From an uncultured Holophagales bacterium (GTDB lineage: Bacteria > Acidobacteriota > Thermoanaerobaculia > Multivoradales > UBA5704), in the NCBI GenBank assembly GCA_963842525.1, contig CAWJGT010000025.1, positions 320,001-384,000 of the forward strand: a stretch of 64,000 bases of DNA, given 5' to 3'. Both the position numbers and the translations under genes were made by a program. The notes under the pieces are model-generated. The model was not told the DNA's origin. It made no database searches and saw only the letters and a program-made list of their open reading frames with translations. Positions 18,721 to 56,361 of this stretch are shown here, piece after piece; within the stretch, counting starts at the first letter, position 1; every line of letters begins with the position of its first letter.

Positions 18721-19334
18721 CGGGCATCCTCCTCGAGCGTGCGCGCCAGGATCTGGAGCGCCCTCTTCAGGCGCTTGCGGATGGCGACAGGGGTGACCCC
18801 CTCGTGCTGTGCGACCTCCTTGACCGGGAGGTCGCCCCAGAAGAGGGCGGTCACGGTGAAGCGGAGCTCCTCCGGCAGGGCGAGCACAGCTCGCCGCAGC
18901 CGGTCTCCGGCCATCGCCTGTCCCACGATCTCTTCAGGATCGGGGTCGGGGTCCGGAGAGGTGGCCTCCACGCCCTCCTCCAGAGGGACGAAGAGGCGTG
19001 GCCTGCGGACATGGTTGAGGAAGGTGTTGTAGGCGATGCGGCAGAGCCAGGTCGAGAACTGGGACCGGCCATCGAACCCGGCCAGAGCGTCCCAGGCCTT
19101 ACGGTAGGTCTCCTGGGTCAGATCGGACGCCAGGTCGGGGTCACCGCACAGCCGGCGCAGCAGCGCATAGACCGTGCGATACGTCGACTCGACCAGCTTT
19201 TCCGCCGCCTCGCGGTCTCCTGCCGCGAGCGCCGCCAGCAGCCTGCCTTCCTGCGCTCCCTCGGATCGTTCCCGCAACCCACCTCCCCACCCGCTTGAAA
19301 CGGTCGCTGCTCGTTCTGTGGTCATCATTTTCAC
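18717..19334 (-). CDS. ECF sigma-70 factor co-transcribed with the VWA anti-sigma-like gene
   Basis: DLASDLTQETY, FDGRSQFSTWLCRIAYN, LPEELR...KEVA...AIRKRLKRA. ATGA overlap with the downstream gene. Confidence 0.9.
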   Translation of the reverse strand: MKMMTTERAATVSSGWGGGLRERSEGAQEGRLLAALAAGDREAAEKLVESTYRTVYALLRRLCGDPDLASDLTQETYRKAWDALAGFDGRSQFSTWLCRIAYNTFLNHVRRPRLFVPLEEGVEATSPDPDPDPEEIVGQAMAGDRLRRAVLALPEELRFTVTALFWGDLPVKEVAQHEGVTPVAIRKRLKRALQILARTLEEDAR

Positions 19335-30601: not shown

Positions 30602-32365
30602 ATGTTCAAGGACATGAAAATCGGGCGCCGGCTGGCGCTTGCCCTCTGGCTGCTGGTCTTCCTGGTCGTCGCCATGGCCGGAGCCGGCTTCTGGGGGGTG
30701 CAGAACGCGTCGAACGCCATGCTGGACATCCTCCGCAACGACCTGCGGCTGGCCAAGGGGTTTGCCGGGGTCCAGCTCATCTCGCTCCACCTGCAGAACA
30801 CCGAGCAGAGGCTGATCCTGAACGTCGCCTCCCCCGAGGAGAGGGACAAAATCGCCGAGGAGTGGACGAAGACCCGCAAGCAACTGGGGGGCGCCCTCGA
30901 CCTGGTCAGCAAGGACGCGAGGCAGGGCGAGGACATCGCCGCGATCCGCGACCTGCGCAACCTGGTCAACGATTACGAGACGGAATTCCAGGGCCTGCTC
31001 CGGCAGGTCCGGAGCGGACAGGTCGCGACGCCGCGCGCGGCCATGGACGCGATGCGGGCGGGCGATGCGCACCTGAAGGCGCTCATGGACAGGACGGCGA
31101 CGATCTCCAAGGACTACGCCAAGCGGATGGATCGGGCCGAGCCGGAGGTCGCCGCGCAGGTCAAGAGCGTCCTCCTGATCCTGTCGGTGCTGGTGGTCAT
31201 CGCCCTGGTGCTCGCCGCCACGATCTCCCTGCTGCTTGCGCGCAGCATCACCCGTCCCATCCTGCAAGTCGTGCGGATCGCCGAGCGGCTGTCCACGGGC
31301 GACACGAGCGACGAGATCGAGGTGGACCGCCAGGACGAGGCGGGCCTGATGCTGGCGTCCATGCGCGACATGATCCGTTCGCAGCGCGAGATGGCGGACG
31401 TGGCCGAGAAGCTCGCCAGCGGCGAGCTGGCGGCGAGCGTGCGTCCGCGCTCGGAGCACGACGTGCTCGGCCGCGCGCTCGCCGCCATGGTCGAGCGCCT
31501 GACGCAGCTCATCCGCGAGCTGCGTTCAGGCGCCTCGGCGGTCTCAGCCGCCTCCGGCCAGGTCTCGGCCACGGCGCAGAGCCTGGCCCAGGGGACGAGC
31601 GAGCAGGCGGCGGCCCTGGAGGAGACCACCTCCAGCCTGGAGGAGATGACCGCCTCGATCACCCAGAACGCGGAGAACAGCCGCAAGATGCAGCACATGG
31701 CCCGCCGCGGCGCCTCCGATGCCGACGAGAGCGGGCGCACGGTGCGCGAGTCGGTCAGCGCCATGAAGACCATCGCGCAGCGCATCTCGATCATCGAGGA
31801 GATCGCCTACCAGACCAACCTGCTGGCGCTCAACGCCGCCATCGAGGCGGCGCGGGCGGGTGAGCACGGGCGCGGCTTCGCGGTGGTCGCCACCGAGGTC
31901 CGCAAGCTCTCCGAGCGCAGCCAGGCCGCGGCGCAGGAGATCGGCGAGCTCGCCGGCTCCACCATGCAGGTGGCCGAGCACTCCGGCAAGCTGCTGGGCG
32001 ACCTCGTGCCGACCATCCGCGAGACCGCCGAGCTGGTCCAGGAGGTCACCGCGGCCTCGGACGAGCAGGCCGCCGGCGTCGGCCTGGTCAACCGCGCCAT
32101 GAGCGAGGTCGATCTCGTGGCCCAGCGCAACGCCTCGGCGGCGGAGGAGCTGTCGGCCGCGGCCGAGGAGCTGTCGTCCCAGGCCGAGGCCCTGAAGGAT
32201 CTCATCGCGTACTTCCGCGTCGACGGCGATGCGCCGCTGCCGCTCCGGCACGATGCCGTGATCGCTCCGTTCCCGACCGCGGCGCGCATGCCGGCGCCCA
32301 CCGCGCGCCGCTTCCGGGGCGCGGCCCATGGCGGACCGGGAGAGGCGGAGTTCACTCCTTTCTGA
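30602..32365 (+). CDS. Methyl-accepting chemotaxis protein (2 TM, periplasmic helical bundle, HAMP)
   Basis: [37 protein letters not shown]-terminal pentapeptide-like EFTPF. Confidence 0.95.
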
Positions 32366-32374
32366 GGTAGCGCG

Positions 32375-32938
32375 ATGCAAGCAGCGGCCAGACCTGTCGA
32401 GACCGTGCAGCAATACCTGACCTTCCACCTCTGCGAGGAGGAGTACGCCGTCGGCATCCTGCAGGTGCGCGAGATCATCGAATACGGCATCGTCACCCGG
32501 GTGCCCACCACGCCGCCCTTCATCCGCGGCGTGATCAACGTGCGCGGCAGCGTCGTGCCGGTGATCGACCTCGCCGTCAAGTTCGGCCTGACGCCCAATC
32601 CGGTGACCCGGCGGTCCTGCATCCTCCTCATCGAGGTGGAGCTCGCGGGCGAGCCGACCGCGATGGGCGTCGTCGCCGACTCGGTCAGCCAGGTGGTCGA
32701 CCTTCTGCCGGGAGACATCGAGCCGGCGCCGGCCTTCGGCACGAGGGTGCACGTCGACTACCTCCTCGGCATGGTCAAGCTGGGGGACAAGTTCGCCCTC
32801 GTCCTGGACATCGACCGTATCCTGTCGACCGACGAGCTGCTCCAGGTCAGCGAGGTCCCGCAGGAGGCGGCGAGCATTCTCGCCTCGGCCACCGAGGCGT
32901 CCGCCACGATGGAGATCGAGGGGGAGAGCGCCTCGTGA
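32375..32938 (+). CDS. cheW: Chemotaxis coupling protein CheW
   Basis: QYLTF, VREII, GVINVRGSVVPVIDL, GVVADSV. Confidence 0.93.
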   Translation: MQAAARPVETVQQYLTFHLCEEEYAVGILQVREIIEYGIVTRVPTTPPFIRGVINVRGSVVPVIDLAVKFGLTPNPVTRRSCILLIEVELAGEPTAMGVVADSVSQVVDLLPGDIEPAPAFGTRVHVDYLLGMVKLGDKFALVLDIDRILSTDELLQVSEVPQEAASILASATEASATMEIEGESAS

Positions 32939-33825
32939 CGACCGCGACGGCGGGCAAGGCGCCGCCGGTCCACCACGCGCCGGACATCCGCGCGCCCACC
33001 GAGCGCGAGTTCCGGCTCTTCCAGGACCTCCTCTCGCGCGAGACCGGGATCTGGCTCAGCGAGCACAAGAGGCCGCTCCTGGTGAGCCGCCTGACCCGGC
33101 GCCTGCGGCAGCTCGGCCTGACCCGCTTCGGCGACTACTACGAGCTGGCCAACGGCGATGCGGCGGAACGGTCGAAGATGATCGAGTGCCTCTGCACGCA
33201 CGAGACGAGCTTCTTCCGCGAGCCCCGCCAGTTCCAGTTCTTCGAGAGCTCGCTGCTGCCGGCCTGGCTCGCCGCCTCCGACGAGGGCTTGCGCCCGCGG
33301 CGGGTGCGGATCTGGAGCGCCGGCTGCTCCACCGGCGAAGAGCCCTTCTCGATCGCCATGCTCCTCGCCGAGTGGCTCCCCGGCTGGGACTGCCGGGTGA
33401 CGGCCACCGACCTGTCGCGCCGGGCGCTCGACAAGGCGCGCTCCGCGACCTGGCCGATCCGGCGGATGGAGGAGATCCCGGTCCCCCTCCTCAAGCGCTA
33501 CATGCTGCGCGGCACCGGCGGCCAGGAGGGCTTCATGCGGGCCGGGGTCGAGCTGCGCGACATGGTCCGCTTCGAGCAGCTCAACCTCGCCGACCCCTAC
33601 TACGGGTTCGAAGAGCCCTTCGACCTCATCTTCTGCCGCAACGTGATGATCTACTTCGATCCCGTCTCCCGCATGCGGGTGGTCGACCGCCTCCTGCGTC
33701 ACCTGATCCCCGGCGGCCATCTCTTCCTCGGGCACGCCGAGAGCCTGCTCGGCCACACCGACCGCATACGCAGCGTGCTGCCGAGCGTCTACTCGCTCCT
33801 CCCGGCCGGCACGAGCGAGGGCTGA
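32935..33825 (+). CDS. cheR: Chemotaxis methyltransferase CheR
   Basis: THETSFFRE, RIWSAGCSTGEE, FDLIFCRNVMIYFD, LFLGHAES. Confidence 0.95.
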   Translation: MTTATAGKAPPVHHAPDIRAPTEREFRLFQDLLSRETGIWLSEHKRPLLVSRLTRRLRQLGLTRFGDYYELANGDAAERSKMIECLCTHETSFFREPRQFQFFESSLLPAWLAASDEGLRPRRVRIWSAGCSTGEEPFSIAMLLAEWLPGWDCRVTATDLSRRALDKARSATWPIRRMEEIPVPLLKRYMLRGTGGQEGFMRAGVELRDMVRFEQLNLADPYYGFEEPFDLIFCRNVMIYFDPVSRMRVVDRLLRHLIPGGHLFLGHAESLLGHTDRIRSVLPSVYSLLPAGTSEG

Positions 33826-33829
33826 GCCC

Positions 33830-34942
33830 ATGGCGCACAAGGACTCGATCCACGTCCTGGTGGTGGACGACTCGGCCGTCGTCCGCCAGCTCCTCTCCGC
33901 CCTCCTCTCCGAGGGGGGCGACATGACGGTGGCCGTGGCCGCCGACCCCTACATCGCGCTGCACAAGATGGGGCAGCAGCGCCCGGACGTCATCGTCCTC
34001 GACCTCGAGATGCCGCGCATGGACGGGATGACCTTCCTGCGCAAGGTGATGCGCGAGGACCCGATCCCGGTGGTGGTCTGCTCGGGCTATGCGGGCAAGG
34101 GGTCCGAAGCCGCCGTGCGCGCGCTGGAGGAGGGGGCGGTCGAGGTACTGGCCAAGCCGAAGGTGGGGCTGCGCGAGTTCCTCTACGAATCGGCCGTGAC
34201 CCTGACCGACGCGGTGCGGGCTGCCTCTCAGGCGAAGGTCCGGCGCAGCCTCCGCCCGGCGCCCAAGCTGTCGGCCGACGCGGTCCTGCCGGCGCGGCCC
34301 CCCCGGTTGCTGGTCGACCCGTCCGGGCTCCGCGTCGTGGCCATGGGAGCCTCCACCGGCGGCACCGAGGCCCTCCACTTCATCCTGTCGCAGATGCCCG
34401 AGACCGCGCCGCCGCTGGTCATCGTCCAGCACATGCCCGAAGGGTTCACCGCCGCCTTCGCCAAGCGTCTGCACGACGTCTGCCGGATCGAGGTCAAGGA
34501 GGCCGCCGACGGCGATGCCGTGGTGCCCGGCCGGGCGCTGATCGCGCCGGGCAACCTCCATACGATGCTGATGCGGCGGGGGAACGGCTATGCGGTCGAG
34601 GTGCGGGACGGGCCGCTGGTGTGCCGGCACCGGCCGAGCGCCGACGTGCTCTTCCGTTCCTTCGCGCAGGCGGCCGGCCCGGCGGCCATTGGGGTGATCC
34701 TCACCGGCATGGGCAACGACGGCTCCGCCGGGCTGCTGGAGATGAAGCAGGCGGGCGCCGCGACCTTCGCCCAGAGCGAGGAGACGTGCGTCGTCTTCGG
34801 GATGCCCAAGGAGGCGATCGCGCTGAAAGCGGTCGACGAGGTGTTGCCGCTGCCGGAGATCCCGCAGGCGCTCCTGCAACGGGCGGCGCTCCCGGTCGTC
34901 CGGCGGCGGACCGGGCAGTGGTCCGCCGAGCCGGCCGAGTAG
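33830..34942 (+). CDS. cheB: Chemotaxis response regulator methylesterase CheB
   Basis: REC domain plus GASTGG, VQHMP, HRPSADVLF, ILTGMGNDG. Confidence 0.95.
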   Translation: MAHKDSIHVLVVDDSAVVRQLLSALLSEGGDMTVAVAADPYIALHKMGQQRPDVIVLDLEMPRMDGMTFLRKVMREDPIPVVVCSGYAGKGSEAAVRALEEGAVEVLAKPKVGLREFLYESAVTLTDAVRAASQAKVRRSLRPAPKLSADAVLPARPPRLLVDPSGLRVVAMGASTGGTEALHFILSQMPETAPPLVIVQHMPEGFTAAFAKRLHDVCRIEVKEAADGDAVVPGRALIAPGNLHTMLMRRGNGYAVEVRDGPLVCRHRPSADVLFRSFAQAAGPAAIGVILTGMGNDGSAGLLEMKQAGAATFAQSEETCVVFGMPKEAIALKAVDEVLPLPEIPQALLQRAALPVVRRRTGQWSAEPAE

Positions 34943-34948
34943 TCGGAG

Positions 34949-36215
34949 TCAGGCCCGCGTCCGCCGCTCGCGCTGGAGCGTGCCCGCGATCTCGCTGGCG
35001 AGCTCCACGGTCAGGCGCTCCTCCTCGCAGGCCTTCCGGAACATGACGAGCGCGGCCAGGGCCTCGCGGTGGACGTCCCGCGATTCGAAGACCGGCATGA
35101 TCTCGGCCGCGAGCCGCTTGAGGTCGCCGGTCCGGTGCTCCTGCGCATAGAGGATGGCCAGGTCGAGCGACACCACGGCGGCGTCGTAGCCCATCCGCCG
35201 CTGCAGGAATTCCTGCTGGACCTGCCGGAACGTCTGCTCAGCCTCGACGAGCTGACCCAAACCGTGAGCGATCTTCGCTTCGGTCCAGTGGAGGCGAACC
35301 AGATCCAGGGGCTTGGCAAGTCGAGAGAAGGACTCTCGCACTGAGGGCAATAAGCTGCTCGCCTCCGCGTGCCGGCCCGCGAGGCTCAAGCAGGTGACCA
35401 GGTTGTGCCGGGCATACAGGTTCAGATGCGGCTCCGCATCCGGGTCGATCTCCTCGATACCCTGGCGGAGCAGCTCGACCGCCGCCGTCACATCTCCGGT
35501 TTCCTCCAGGAGCTTGGCTTTTTTCAGAATGGCCATCCCGAGCCCGTGGGAATCTTCCCCTTCCCGGTAAAGCACCAGGGCACGGTCCGTCAGAGTCAGG
35601 GCCTCCCCAAACCGCCGCTGATCCCTCCGGAGAGAGCCTTCATGTCGAGGATCTCCGCCGCGACCAGCGGGTTGCCGGTCATGCTTTCGCCCAGGTGCTT
35701 CTCCGCCTTGCGGAAAGCGGTCTCTGCGCTCCTGCGCTCCCCAGGATCCGCCGGCCGTTTCCGAGATAGGCGAAGGCGCGCGCATGCAGGTCGGAGATCC
35801 AATGCGGGTCATAGGCGGTCTCGAGATGCTGGGCCGCGTGCAACGCCAGCTCGGCCAGGTTGACAGCCGAGGCCGGATCCTCGAAGGCTGCCTCCAGACT
35901 CTTTTTGAGCAGGTGCTGACAAACGGCCCAGCTCTGGAAGCCCGGATCGTCGGCCACCATCCCGAGCTGCTCGTCGAAGGGGTGACGCAGCAGCTCGGCG
36001 ACGAGCGAGGGAGCCTCCTGTCCCTCGAAGACGGCGACACGCTCGTCCCAATGGCCGACCTCGCGTTTGAGACGCTGGATCTCCTCATAGCGCTCGCTGC
36101 AGGCAGGGCAGCTCGCCAGGAGGTGCGGGATCACCTTGGTGTACAGGTCATCGCTCTCCAGGTCACCGGCCAGCCACTTCGCCATCATTTCGAGCGACAG
36201 ATGAGCGTCTTTCAA
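34949..36215 (-). CDS. Soluble TPR-repeat protein with N-terminal Zn-finger anti-sigma-like motif; two apparent 1-bp deletions (~35635 and ~35740)
   Basis: N-terminus HLS...PHLLASCPAC. Helical repeats AFAYLGNGRRILGE.RSAE..FRKA, SLRRDQRRFGEAL, YARHNL, YDAAVVSLDLA, VHREALAAL. TTG start after RBS aggagg. Confidence 0.75.
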
Positions 36216-36253
36216 GGGTCCCTCCTTAGGAAAAGAAATGCTCCCACTCTATG

Positions 36254-36282
36254 AAGTTGCCGCAGGAGGATAATCCGTGACA
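36254..36282 (-). promoter_or_regulatory. Putative ECF promoter TGTCACG-N16-CAACTT upstream of the TPR gene
   Basis: Same layout as 36709-36737. Confidence 0.5.
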
Positions 36283-36289
36283 CGCCGGG

Positions 36290-36321
36290 AAAAAAAGATG
36301 GGGCCGGTCCTGGCCAGCCCC
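36290..36321 (-). terminator. Rho-independent terminator after the DPHG peptide gene
   Basis: GGGGCTGG-ccagga-CCGGCCCC-atc-T7 on the minus strand. Confidence 0.75.
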
Positions 36322-36342
36322 CGAGCTCGCGGCCAAGCGCTT

Positions 36343-36639
36343 CTAGCCGTGCGGATCGATGGTCGCCCCCACGTCGCCGTCGGAAGTCACTCCGCTCGAG
36401 CCATCACCCTGTCCTGGGTTCCCGTGCGGATCGAGCCCGGCACCGACCATCCCCCAGATGCCGACGATCGCCTCCCAGGCCCGCGTCAGGACACTCATCG
36501 GCCGGCCGTGATCCCGCTGCTCCCACTGCTGGGGCTCGGTGTCCCAGCCGAGCACCCCGGCGAAGGAAGCAACAGGCAGCAGCGCAAGCAGTCCGGCCAG
36601 AACCACGGGGAGTGTACGCCTCCAAATCTTCGAAGACAT
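36343..36639 (-). CDS. 98-aa secreted peptide precursor with two VGAxxDPHG motifs
   Basis: RBS aaagggg. Sec signal ending ...VASFA. Amphipathic LTRAWEAIVGIW, then MVGAGLDPHG and the terminal DVGATIDPHG*. Has its own terminator. Confidence 0.8.
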   Translation of the reverse strand: MSSKIWRRTLPVVLAGLLALLPVASFAGVLGWDTEPQQWEQRDHGRPMSVLTRAWEAIVGIWGMVGAGLDPHGNPGQGDGSSGVTSDGDVGATIDPHG

Positions 36640-36708
36640 GTCTTGACCCCTTTCAGGGCGGGCGAAATGGCGCGGCGCCATGCCGCGGATGCCCATCCCC
36701 GTAAAAGA

Positions 36709-36737
36709 GAGTCAGCAGCCACGTCAACAGCGGGACA
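36709..36737 (-). promoter_or_regulatory. Putative ECF promoter TGTCCCG-N16-TGACTC upstream of the peptide gene
   Basis: Shares TGTCmCG-N18-ACT with 36254-36282. Confidence 0.5.
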
Positions 36738-36791: not shown

Positions 36792-37490
36792 TCAGCGGCA
36801 GTAGCGGGCCAGGCTGCGGCGGTCGTGGACCCGGATGCGGTGGTCGGGATCGACGGAGATGTAGCCGCGCTGCTTGAGCTCGACGATCACCTGGTTGACC
36901 CGCTCGCGGGAGGCGCCGACGATCTCGCCGAGGTCGCTCTGCGTCAGCCGCAGCGGGATGGTCACCTCGCCGCCGGCCTCCTCGGCTGCCATAGCGGTCG
37001 GCCAGGGCGAGGATCTGGCGGGCCACCCGGCCGGGCACGTCCAGGGTGCACAGCGCCTGGATCTGCTCGTTGGCGAAGCGCAGCCGGTTCGACGAGCAGC
37101 CGGACGAGGTTGTTGGCCAGCGGCGTGAGCGTCCGCAGGCAGGTCTGGAAGGTGGCGCGGTCCATCCAGAGGAGGCGGGAGCGCTCGGTCGTCACCACGT
37201 TGGCGGAACGGCCGGCGCTGTCGATCAGGCTCATCTCCCCTACCGTGTCGCCGCGGCCGAGGAAGGCGAGGATGACCTCGCGGCCGTCCTCCCGGGTGAC
37301 GTAGATCTTCACCGTGCCTTCGAGGATGACGTAGACCACCTCGCCGGGCTGGTCGGCCGTGATGAAGTGGGTCCCGGCCGGGATCACGGAGCTGCGCAGC
37401 AGGCCGTTCGAGTCGCCGAGCTGCTCGGGCGCCAGCCCCTCGAACAGCTCGAGGCTCGCCCAGAAGCTTCGGATCCTCGACGGCTGGCAT
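36792..37490 (-). CDS. Crp/Fnr family transcriptional regulator, multiple frameshifts
   Basis: VYVILEGTVKI, GDTVGEMSLID..RSANV, LDVPGRVARQIL and HTH LTQSDLGEIVGASRERVNQ, spread over several frames. Confidence 0.85.
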   Translation of the reverse strand: MPAVEDPKLLGEPRAVRGAGARAARRLERPAAQLRDPGRDPLHHGRPARRGGLRHPRRHGEDLRHPGGRPRGHPRLPRPRRHGRGDEPDRQRRPFRQRGDDRALPPPLDGPRHLPDLPADAHAAGQQPRPAARRTGCASPTSRSRRCAPWTCPAGWPARSSPWPTAMAAEEAGGEVTIPLRLTQSDLGEIVGASRERVNQVIVELKQRGYISVDPDHRIRVHDRRSLARYCR

Positions 37491-37507: not shown

Positions 37508-38662
37508 CTATCGGCCGAGCAGGGTGGCGAGGACCTCGACGCCACGCTCGACCACGTCCGGCGGTGCGGCGGTGAAGCAGACCCGGACATGGGTGGGATA
37601 GGGGCCGAAGCTCGGCCCAGGAGCCACGAACAGACCGCGGTCGACGCAGTCTTCGAGGAAGCCGCCGAGCCCGCGCTCGTCCAGCCGGTCCGCCACGTCC
37701 AGGAAAAGGAAGGTGCTCCCCTGCGGTGGATCGAGCCCCAGCCGCGCCGCCGCGCGTTCGCCGGACGCGCGGTACTGCTCCCGTGCCCGGGCGATCCACG
37801 CCTCCCCCGGCCCGTCGAGCACCCGCAGGGCGGCGAGCTGCGCGGCCGTGGGCGTGCTGTAGAAGCTGTGCATGCCGATCTTGCGCAGCTCTTTCATGGC
37901 CCCGGCCGGGCCGACGACGTGCCCGCAGCGGTTGCCCGCCATGCCATAGGCCTTGGAGAAGGAATGCGCGGCGAAGGTGCGCTCGGGCGCCAGCGGCCGG
38001 CACTAGGTGTGCTCGCCGTCGTAGACGTAGTCCTCGTAGACCTCGTCGGCCAGGATCCAGAGGTCCTCGTTCGTGCGCCCAGGCGACCAGCGCCTCGACC
38101 CAGGAGCGCGGGATGGTGCGGCCGGTCGGGTTGCTCGGCGTGTTGAGGTAGAGGGCGATCGTGCGCGGGGTGAGCTTCTCCCGCACCACCTCGACGGCGG
38201 TTTCAGGTGAATCGGCGCGCGCCGAAGAAGGGCGACGTCCACCGGCACGCCATGGAAGGAGTGGACGATGCCGGTGATCAGCGGCCAGTGCGGCGCGAGC
38301 AGGAGCACCTCGTCGCCGGGGGTCTACGATCGCGCCGGCCACCGCGGCCAGGCCGCCGGTGGCTCCGGTGGTGACCAGGACGTTCTCCCGCTCGGTCGGC
38401 ACGCCCGTGCGTGCTCGCGTCTGCTCGACGAGGGCGTCGAGCAGCGCCGGCATCCCTGGGGCGGCGCGTAGCGGTGCATGCCGGGGTGCTCCGCGACGCG
38501 CAGGTCCTCCATGCGGCACCCCGCGGCGGGCTCCATCCAGGTGTCGCCGACGTGCAGCGGGTAGACCTCGCCCTGGTGGGTGGCGAGGCGGTGGGCGAGC
38601 GCCGAGTACACGGCGCCCGCAATGTCACCGACGGTCGGGGAGAATCCAGGATAACGAGGCAT
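37508..38662 (-). CDS. PLP-dependent aminotransferase class I/II, multiple frameshifts and an in-frame TAG
   Basis: VLVTTGATGGL, LNTPSNPTG, ILADEVYED, SFSKAYGMAGNRCG and HVRVCF, in different frames. Confidence 0.8.
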
Positions 38663-55779: not shown

Positions 55780-56361
55780 GTGCGTTTACCGGTCGTGAGC
55801 GCAAACCTGATGACGAGCGCGATCTTGGACCGGACAACCGAAAGCTCCACCGCGACCGACCGGCTCGCGGACCTTTTCGAAGTCCACCAGCAGCGGCTGT
55901 TCCGGCTGGCCGTGCGGCTGTCGTCCGACCGGGAGGAGGCGCGGGACCTGGTGCAGGAGACCTTCCTGCGCGCCGCCCGCAGCCCCCGGTCGATCCCCGA
56001 GGGGGACTCCCCCGGTGAAGCCTGGCTGGTGCGGACGCTGGTCAACCTCTGCCGCGACCGCTACCGCCGGGTGACCGTCCGGCTGCGTGGCCGCGAGGTC
56101 CTGGAGCGGGACGAGGAGCGCCTCGCCGATCCCGAATCGGCCGAGGTCGCCCGCGCCACCGTGCGCGCCGCGCTGACCCGCCTCTCGCCGCGCCGCCGCG
56201 CCGTCGTCGTCCTCCACGAGCTCGAAGGCAGGCCGGCCCGCGAGGTCGCCCGCCTGCTGGGTATCCGCGAGGTGACCGTCCGCTGGCACCTGCTGGCCGC
56301 GCGGCGCGAGCTCGCCCGCGTGCTGCTCGATCCACCTGCTTCCCGAGGAGCCGAGCCATGA
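55780..56361 (+). CDS. ECF sigma-70 factor
   Basis: EARDLVQETFLRA, AWLVRTLVNLCRD, LSPRRRAVVVLHE.EG...EVARLLG..TVRWHL. The start may be ATG 55810. Confidence 0.9.
   Translation: MRLPVVSANLMTSAILDRTTESSTATDRLADLFEVHQQRLFRLAVRLSSDREEARDLVQETFLRAARSPRSIPEGDSPGEAWLVRTLVNLCRDRYRRVTVRLRGREVLERDEERLADPESAEVARATVRAALTRLSPRRRAVVVLHELEGRPAREVARLLGIREVTVRWHLLAARRELARVLLDPPASRGAEP

Follow-up and report, generated by a model that had tools for sequence, protein, structure and literature searches.

The peptide and TPR genes of the window locus

The DNA analyzed here is a stretch of 64,000 nucleotides (nt) from an uncultured Holophagales bacterium (assembly GCA_963842525.1, contig CAWJGT010000025.1, positions 320,001 to 384,000), which we call the window. 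On its minus strand lie a gene for a small secreted-type propeptide and, directly downstream, a gene for a protein with tetratricopeptide repeats (TPR) and an N-terminal domain resembling zinc-binding anti-sigma (ZAS) factors. We refer to the two genes, with the promoter-like motif in front of each, as the cassette. The cassette is one of dozens of paralogous copies per genome and was found only in one order of Acidobacteriota (Thermoanaerobaculia, by the source names of close homologs). An original prediction, made from the letters of the window, had read the pair as a circuit analogous to the RRNPP peptide pheromone systems whose output is sequestration of a sigma factor. Our analysis leans, slightly beyond even chances, toward a related reading, in which the module would be a peptide-sensing soluble anti-sigma factor with RRNPP-like logic.

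The peptide gene agrees with its earlier description as an open reading frame (ORF) of 98 residues with a Sec signal, a Trp helix, and two near-identical DPHG motifs. Residues 1 to 27 form a putative Sec-type signal peptide, judged from sequence features, with a basic n-region, a hydrophobic core, and the residues ASFA ahead of a G at the presumed cleavage point. An amphipathic Trp-rich helix (approximately residues 46 to 63; peak hydrophobic moment, 0.49) precedes the first unit, VGAGLDPHG (residues 65 to 73); the second unit, VGATIDPHG (residues 90 to 98), is the C terminus of the protein. No family in Pfam or NCBIfam matched the peptide.

The TPR gene starts at a TTG codon (position 36215, minus strand) preceded by AAGGAGG and is distributed over three frames. 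The three segments together span the full length of an intact 422-residue ortholog from the same genus (L021), to which they are 59 to 70% identical, and they contain no in-frame stop. A DNA alignment with L021 places two 1-nt deletions in the window copy, one near 35740, within a run of G, and one near 35636; these are the two indels that had been noted before. The protein also fits the earlier account of a soluble TPR protein of about 420 residues with an N-terminal H-x4-C-x2-C motif (here H31-x4-C36-x2-C39), and no transmembrane segment is visible in its sequence. The Pfam models TPR_12 and TPR_MalT match the C-terminal part, generic TPR models are the sole Pfam matches in the C-terminal two thirds, and the NCBIfam NsdA/AfsR TPR model stays below threshold. 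Close homologs are annotated solely as TPR or hypothetical proteins. An AlphaFold2 model of a TPR ortholog (pLDDT, 91.5) has 22 helices arranged as an all-helical TPR superhelix. Its best Foldseek matches are the peptide-binding TPR domains of LGN/Pins (E of about 3e-6), and the Rap pheromone receptors appear at ranks 26, 32, 46, and 48 (E of 1e-4 to 3e-4; TMq, 0.46 to 0.51). The model shows a superhelix of the peptide-binding type but does not by itself establish a specific tie to RRNPP. Contigs from soil RNA libraries (two runs of one study) that are at least 95% alike cover the TPR gene on its 5' side (35971 to 36215) and on its 3' side (34980 to 35155), and two of them terminate exactly at the start codon at 36215; they hint, if only weakly, at transcription of the gene in close relatives.

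The promoter-like motif before both genes is one that the original prediction had pointed out. The pattern TGTCMCG-N18-ACT, which was defined after the fact, has exactly two matches in the window, one per gene, with 0.13 expected, and two matches were reached in 1 of 100 shuffles. Comparative loci agree. Of 26 loci (the window locus and 25 others, with L022 excluded for its spacer of only 30 nt), 24 have TGTC-N3-N16-N(W/G)AC no more than 150 nt from the start of the TPR gene, and in L021 and L025 the promoter spacer, judged by eye, is 17 nt long. The consensus of the TPR-gene promoters is TGTCACGAAAT-N9-GCGG(C/A)AACTA. A weight matrix was derived from 24 loci, three of these instances coming from the window's own genome. 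At 19 bits or more it gave 18 hits in that genome, whereas the reversed genome, used as control, gave 0. Fifteen of these hits are immediately 5' of TPR-family genes, of both the ZAS and the helix-turn-helix (HTH) types described below, and two are an identical sequence on redundant contigs. The strong hits include two that fall outside cassettes, C34:218431 and C3:1759007, in front of or overlapping genes whose products are secreted proteins of unknown function. A looser motif stands at the same distance 5' of the orthologous peptide genes, in 9 of 22 by a strict pattern (versus 0.07 in shuffles) and in 7 of 22 by a second one (versus 0.24). The motif has the bipartite -35/-10 geometry of ECF (extracytoplasmic function) sigma factor promoters, with a spacer of 16 to 17 nt, and its -35 element and spacer are as in ECF41 promoters, which bears out the earlier description of it as ECF-like in these respects. 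These comparisons leave a promoter function well supported. A sigma-54 reading was considered and dropped, as the motif does not have the GG-N10-GC spacing of sigma-54 promoters.

Between motif and coding region, the peptide gene has a structured 5' leader. The nested fold is shared, by eye, among the minimum-energy folds of 21 of 22 orthologous peptide leaders (for example, L003:1047-1111), and the outer-stem sequences vary yet stay complementary (mean z, -2.1 versus mononucleotide shuffles). RNAalifold recovered three pairs from a MAFFT alignment of the leaders; the nested fold comes from folding them singly. Rfam had no match for the leader, its sole hit being a subthreshold CC2171 inside the coding region. 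The terminator that had been ascribed to the peptide gene was found as a GC hairpin (36321 to 36300) with a T run. A crude hairpin-plus-T rule detects such terminator-like hairpins in 18 of 22 peptide-TPR spacers, with about 14 clear GGGGCCGG...CCGGCCCC hairpins.

The features of the locus, with the sigma factor gene discussed below, are collected in Table 1. Among the neighbors, a plus-strand chemotaxis cluster (genes for a methyl-accepting chemotaxis protein, CheW, CheR, and CheB; 30602 to 34942) is convergent with the TPR gene, facing its 3' end, and the gene order Crp-peptide-TPR is syntenic in the same-genus genome that supplied L021.

Table 1. Features of the cassette and its candidate sigma factor, in window coordinates
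Feature	Position	Strand	Basis
Promoter-like motif TGTCCCG-N17-GACT, 5' of peptide gene	36710..36737	minus	Exact pattern match
Structured 5' leader: outer stem around GC hairpin, (A)ATGRC-type loop, ends before Shine-Dalgarno	36654..36701	minus	Folding
Propeptide gene, 98 aa from MSSKIW	36343..36639	minus	ORF call and sequence features
Intrinsic-terminator-like hairpin and T run after peptide gene	36290..36321	minus	Hairpin search
Promoter-like motif TGTCACG-N16-CAACT, 5' of TPR gene	36255..36282	minus	Pattern match; best weight-matrix hit, 38.8 bits
TPR gene segment 1, aa 1-159: ZAS-like zinc domain and first TPR-like helices	35739..36215	minus	tblastn against intact ortholog, 70% identity
TPR gene segment 2, aa ~159-194, second frame	35635..35742	minus	69% identity to ortholog
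TPR gene segment 3, aa ~193-422, third frame, including stop codon	34949..35641	minus	59% identity to ortholog
Orphan ECF sigma factor of cassette-linked subfamily, 180 aa	7953..8492	minus	Pfam Sigma70_r2 and r4_2

Expansion of the cassette and its peptide family

The first 178 residues of the TPR protein match 53 places in the 9.95-Mb genome that holds the window, and profile searches of this genome returned 121 ORF pieces in two rounds, with 82 hits to the TPR core. The family is present in 39 of 41 close relatives and in 4 of 201 genomes of an even sample of the phylum, all four in the same order. When 8000 candidate proteins were scored, at least 353 proved to be TPR proteins of this kind. 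Peptide genes were collected with a filter that accepted ORFs of at most 260 residues from stop to stop that have a hydrophobic stretch and end in [DNG][PDH]xG plus at most four residues. Of the 41 ORFs that pass it in the window's own genome, 35 have a TPR-family ORF no farther than 1.5 kb away: 27 are codirectional and upstream, 5 are divergent, 2 are codirectional and downstream, and 1 is convergent. Three of the six unpaired ORFs resemble false positives. A second sample consisted of 41 fetched rows, 8 from the own genome and the others from 15 related genomes in 11 genera; an upstream peptide was found in 33 rows, or 27 of the 34 distinct loci. Linkage of peptide and TPR homologs had been set beforehand as a test of the original prediction, and both samples came out in its favor.

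The pairing extends to TPR paralogs with another output domain. An XRE-type HTH domain takes the place of the ZAS-like domain in 19 of the 82 TPR-core hits, and most genes for precursors with Cys-loop units (GCxxDPxGRC, two to three copies) are divergent beside TPR paralogs of this XRE-HTH type. Examples lie at C1:45038-46512, C9:580137-581422, C25:404149-405525, and C11:116431-118313 of the window's own genome (G000). A divergent Cys-loop precursor next to an XRE-HTH-TPR gene is the classical RRNPP-like architecture, present in the same genome. Compared across the paralogs, the peptide gene appears to follow the TPR domain, not the output domain. Other arrangements exist as well. No DPxG-type peptide gene passed the filter in a tandem array of five ZAS-TPR paralogs (G000 C9:424154-434063), and stand-alone ZAS-like N-domain proteins of about 81 residues are encoded at G000 C1:43047-43292, C9:1874169-1874414, C7:90214-90462, and C6:78841-79086, those on C1 and C9 divergently beside HTH-TPR paralogs.

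Common to the peptides of the cassettes are a signal peptide (by sequence features), a helix resembling LxxLWxxLxxLW, and a unit, x-G-x-x-(I/L/M)-D-P-(N/D/H/S)-G, that occurs two to four times. In 31 of 59 nonredundant peptide-like ORFs the last unit is also the end of the protein, exactly at its G. The six residues before DPxG have a mean identity of 0.64 between units of one precursor (75 pairs) versus 0.31 between units of different precursors (5178 pairs), and the contrast is strongest at unit positions -5 and -3. Such figures suggest that the repeat units evolve in concert within a precursor. Copies that are alike within a precursor and different between paralogs are expected of a unit that is itself active as a molecule. 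With a profile built from 22 peptides, the search found 2640 cluster representatives at an E of 0.001 or less, and 149 of the best 150 are 83 to 209 residues long. The top hit is a giant protein (P0121, 4336 residues) with 27 matched stretches and a HAMP match, probably an artefact of repeats or composition and no relative.

The ZAS-like domain and a dedicated ECF sigma subfamily

The ligand pattern of the N-domain in the window copy is H5-x25-H31-x4-C36-x2-C39. In 54 orthologs H31, C36, C39, and H55 do not vary and H5 hardly does; once more distant paralogs are added, invariance holds for H5, C36, and C39 and almost for H31. In its strict form the ZAS motif reads H-x3-C-x2-C, and one paralog, L008, has this canonical form. 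When a profile of the N-domain was compared with all PDB sequences, three of the top five hits, all weak, were anti-sigma domains whose structures were solved together with their ECF sigma: ChrR (2q1z_B; E of 0.0026 over profile positions 4 to 77), RslA (0.025), and RsiW (0.16). Pfam zf-HC2 scores above its gathering threshold in 2 of 32 aligned N-domains and in two TPR paralogs of the genome; for the N-domain of the window copy, neither Pfam nor NCBIfam has a matching family.

A distinct subfamily of ECF sigma factors accompanies the family. The own genome has six full copies, one of them the orphan gene in the window, 27 kb from the cassette. The best match of this orphan in each genome is 79 to 92% identical in 20 of 24 other genomes of the same family and 51 to 74% identical in the other four. 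In G000 two sigma genes of the subfamily lie directly upstream of ZAS-TPR genes (C34:43286-47271), and ahead of the second stand a promoter-like motif and a peptide gene whose product ends in IDDNG (C34:45539-47271). Sigma and ZAS-TPR genes alternate with overlapping frames in G007, G011, G013, and G016, in assemblies of 1 to 140 contigs. The full order of motif, peptide, sigma, and ZAS-TPR recurs in three genera (G000 C34, G011, and G013), the peptide units in G011 and G013 being xIDGNG, and G016 has peptide, sigma, and ZAS-TPR genes in the same order without a match to the motif. The sigma subfamily is present in 37 of 41 relatives. Two genomes that lack the TPR family (G031 and G033) also lack the sigma, and G030 and G032, with three and one TPR matches, have no sigma match at the threshold used. 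As related genomes are not independent, this co-occurrence is descriptive only.

Promoters of the peptide-sigma operons did not score at 12 bits or more with the matrix trained on TPR genes; a looser pattern detects them and is noisy (50 genome hits versus 26 in the control). None of the strong matrix hits lies 5' of a subfamily sigma gene, and no such motif lies upstream of the orphan sigma gene of the window.

Conservation of the His/Cys motif, the profile matches to solved anti-sigma domains, operon adjacency to genes of the dedicated ECF subfamily in several genera, and co-occurrence are independent lines that make an anti-sigma role of the ZAS-TPR family likely. The orphan sigma of the window is a candidate partner of the cassette there. 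Several further observations concern sigma genes. ORFs weakly similar to the subfamily, 124 to 202 residues from stop to stop (the shortest 124 to 126), lie just 5' of TPR genes at G000 C32:4563-4937, C29:24729-25109, C6:228851-229231, C3:154777-155271, and C9:1148920-1149528, in four of these five cassettes between the peptide and TPR genes; they may be truncated sigma domains or decoys. Two more ECF-type sigma genes of the window (Sigma70_r2; 19002 to 19196, minus strand, and 55873 to 56070, plus strand) fall outside the cassette-linked subfamily.

Proposed function of the cassette and its relation to known systems

RRNPP receptors are TPR proteins that bind re-imported peptides cut from adjacent propeptides. 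By analogy, we propose that the first gene of the cassette encodes a Sec-exported propeptide in whose tail the unit x-G-x-x-(I/L/M)-D-P-x-G is repeated two to four times, usually up to the last residue, and that the second encodes a soluble cytoplasmic anti-sigma factor in which a ChrR/RsrA-type zinc domain is fused to a TPR sensor superhelix. The anti-sigma domain would sequester an ECF sigma of the dedicated subfamily; at the window locus this sigma would act in trans, presumably from the conserved orphan copy. The sigma would read TGTCAC(G)-N16/17-(C)AAC(T) promoters before the peptide and TPR genes, so that its release would raise both peptide and sensor and create feedback. A mature peptide of about 8 to 10 residues would be exported, cleaved, re-imported, and most probably bound by the TPR domain, which would thereby change its grip on the sigma. 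Inferred in this scheme are the steps from export through processing and import to binding of the peptide, the identity of the bound sigma, and the choice between release and tightening. We consider it somewhat more probable than not that the TPR domain has the peptide encoded next to it as its ligand, because the pairing is kept whatever the output domain or orientation, because the units evolve in concert, and because the arrangement is analogous to RRNPP. Three SBP_bac_5 binding proteins are encoded in the genome, which makes peptide import at least feasible.

Several points weigh against this proposal. A cytoplasmic receptor in a diderm requires that the peptide return across two membranes, and the pairing alone would also fit a peptide that is a mere regulated product. 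By the filter used, 16 of 37 ZAS-type TPR hits have no same-strand DPxG peptide. The likeness of the fold to Rap is no better than that to generic TPR proteins. No sigma gene adjoins the window cassette or most other cassettes, and one promoter motif stands before many ZAS-type and HTH-type paralogs, which leaves unexplained how signals would stay distinct among dozens of anti-sigma factors that share a handful of sigmas. The -10-like element is CAAC (consensus, GCGG(C/A)AACT) and lacks the CGT that is typical of -10 elements in ECF promoters. In the window copy the motif is H-x4-C-x2-C instead of H-x3-C-x2-C, Pfam zf-HC2 has no match, and the match to ChrR is weak; moreover, the TPR gene of this copy carries its two frameshifts. 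The original prediction stands in part. Its zinc-finger anti-sigma domain holds at the level of the profile matches to ChrR, RslA, and RsiW, while the window copy departs by one residue from the strict motif and has no zf-HC2 match. Of its circuit, the conserved and expanded pair, the anti-sigma-like domain, and adjacency to ECF genes elsewhere are supported; no sigma gene is adjacent at this locus.

The main rival is that the peptide is a product and not a signal: the TPR domain would sense something else, such as a protein partner or a metabolite, and the peptide would be the main regulated output, for example a membrane-active, matrix, or competition peptide. A sigma-type promoter makes the peptide gene a target, the mature N-terminal part has an amphipathic Trp-rich helix of a kind common in membrane-active peptides, and nearly all of the regulon found with the weight matrix is made up of genes of the cassettes. 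However, a mere product leaves unexplained why units that are alike within a precursor differ between paralogs, and why a TPR paralog has its own adjacent peptide gene whatever its output domain or orientation, and we consider this explanation unlikely. The terminal position of the last unit could instead point to partner switching coupled to secretion, in which the TPR domain would clamp the C-terminal DPxG tail of the unexported precursor and export would alter anti-sigma activity with no re-import. TPR domains clamp C-terminal peptides in Hop and PEX5, type III secretion has TPR chaperones that keep hold of its substrates, and a cytoplasmic receptor of this sort avoids the problem of import through two membranes. 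Many precursors, however, run 1 to 4 residues past the last unit, internal copies of the unit are equally conserved, and we know of no precedent for such switching among ECF systems, so that we regard it as quite improbable. The small multicore precursor with repeated core-like units, and with Cys in some paralogs, also resembles that of a ribosomally synthesized and posttranslationally modified peptide (RiPP), for which the TPR protein would be a recognition or regulatory factor. But the cassettes are bare two- or three-gene units in unrelated contexts with no conserved tailoring enzyme beside them, the precursor has a Sec signal (by sequence features) instead of a leader, and the TPR protein bears a transcription-factor-type N-domain; a RiPP origin is the least credible of these explanations.

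A separate issue is whether the window copy is a dead pseudogene, its frameshifts being real and its cassette inactive even if the family is functional. The two deletions relative to an intact ortholog allow this, and public data miss both sites: no sequencing run contains more than 7% of the sampled words of the stretch, and contigs of relatives from four runs cover only 34964 to 35219 and 35924 to 36371. Nearby genes are broken as well. In the gene for a Crp-family regulator (36792 to 37387, minus strand) the cNMP-binding part is read in one frame and the HTH part in another, and an aminotransferase gene farther upstream (37508 to 38662, minus strand) is split over three, so that at least five frameshifts cluster in a stretch of about 3 kb. 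On the other side, the chemotaxis genes are intact. Because the three TPR segments retain their identity to the ortholog without stops, because the neighboring genes are also split, and because one deletion lies in a G run, the frameshifts are probably local consensus errors of the assembly, which consists of 34 contigs. Loss of function at this copy is accordingly rather unlikely in our view.

To our knowledge, cytoplasmic peptide-pheromone receptors have been described only from Bacillota and their mobile elements, and no ECF sigma/anti-sigma pair is known to respond to a peptide that the cell itself makes and secretes. Should the peptide-sensing reading be true, peptide quorum sensing would extend to a dominant, poorly understood soil phylum, ECF signaling would gain a new class of input, and the cassettes would form a large natural library of orthogonal peptide, receptor, sigma, and promoter parts. 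It is directly testable without culturing the organism, by means of synthetic peptides and heterologous reporters. More tentatively, and at somewhat less than even chances, the dozens of diversified pairs of secreted peptide and cytoplasmic TPR protein per genome may constitute a private code that feeds XRE-type DNA binding or, via zinc anti-sigma domains, a few conserved ECF sigmas. Such a code would be the first RRNPP-like system of re-imported peptides in a diderm phylum and the first pheromone to act by control of sigma-factor sequestration, with strain or kin discrimination as likely uses.

Full-text literature searches found no paper describing such a peptide/ZAS-TPR system. A close parallel in architecture is the RRNPP(A) group of Bacillota and their phages (Rap-Phr, NprR-NprX, PlcR-PapR, Rgg-SHP, and AimR-AimP). 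As in that group, a small gene for a Sec-type propeptide adjoins a gene for a cytoplasmic TPR superhelix, the presumed active unit is placed at the C terminus, each genome has many paralogous pairs, and some paralogs combine XRE-HTH and TPR domains with a divergent peptide gene. In contrast, the host is a diderm acidobacterium, generic TPR models and no RRNPP-specific family of Pfam or NCBIfam detect the TPR protein, the output is an anti-sigma zinc domain instead of an HTH or Rap-type domain, and the precursor is multicopy, with a conserved DPxG turn and an amphipathic helix. Abstracts of RRNPP surveys place these systems in Firmicutes, and one paper treats them likewise (PMC9765709).

With the ZAS pairs ChrR-sigmaE, RsrA-sigmaR, and RslA-sigmaL the cassette shares an N-terminal His/Cys zinc motif whose first ligand lies about 25 residues upstream, a soluble protein with, as in ChrR, a C-terminal sensor domain after the anti-sigma domain, and ECF sigma genes directly 5' of some paralogs. 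It differs in that most members have H-x4-C-x2-C, the sensor is a TPR superhelix of about 330 residues, most cassettes have no adjacent sigma gene, and a gene for a secreted peptide belongs to the unit. An ECF re-classification counts soluble anti-sigma factors in 10 groups, expects more variants, and links TPR domains to the extensions of ECF42 and to a FecR-like anti-sigma factor of ECF267 (PMC7826278). Target promoters of ECF41 are given as TGTCACA-N16-CGTC in PMC3426412; the cassette motif equals them in its -35 TGTCAC(A/G) and its spacer of 16 ± 1 nt and departs from their CGTC in its -10-like (C)AAC(T). In ECF42, according to the re-classification (PMC7826278), a TPR domain is likewise tied to ECF control. 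Unlike the sigma factors of ECF41 and ECF42, the 180-residue sigma linked to the cassette has no C-terminal extension, and the TPR domain sits on a separate anti-sigma protein.

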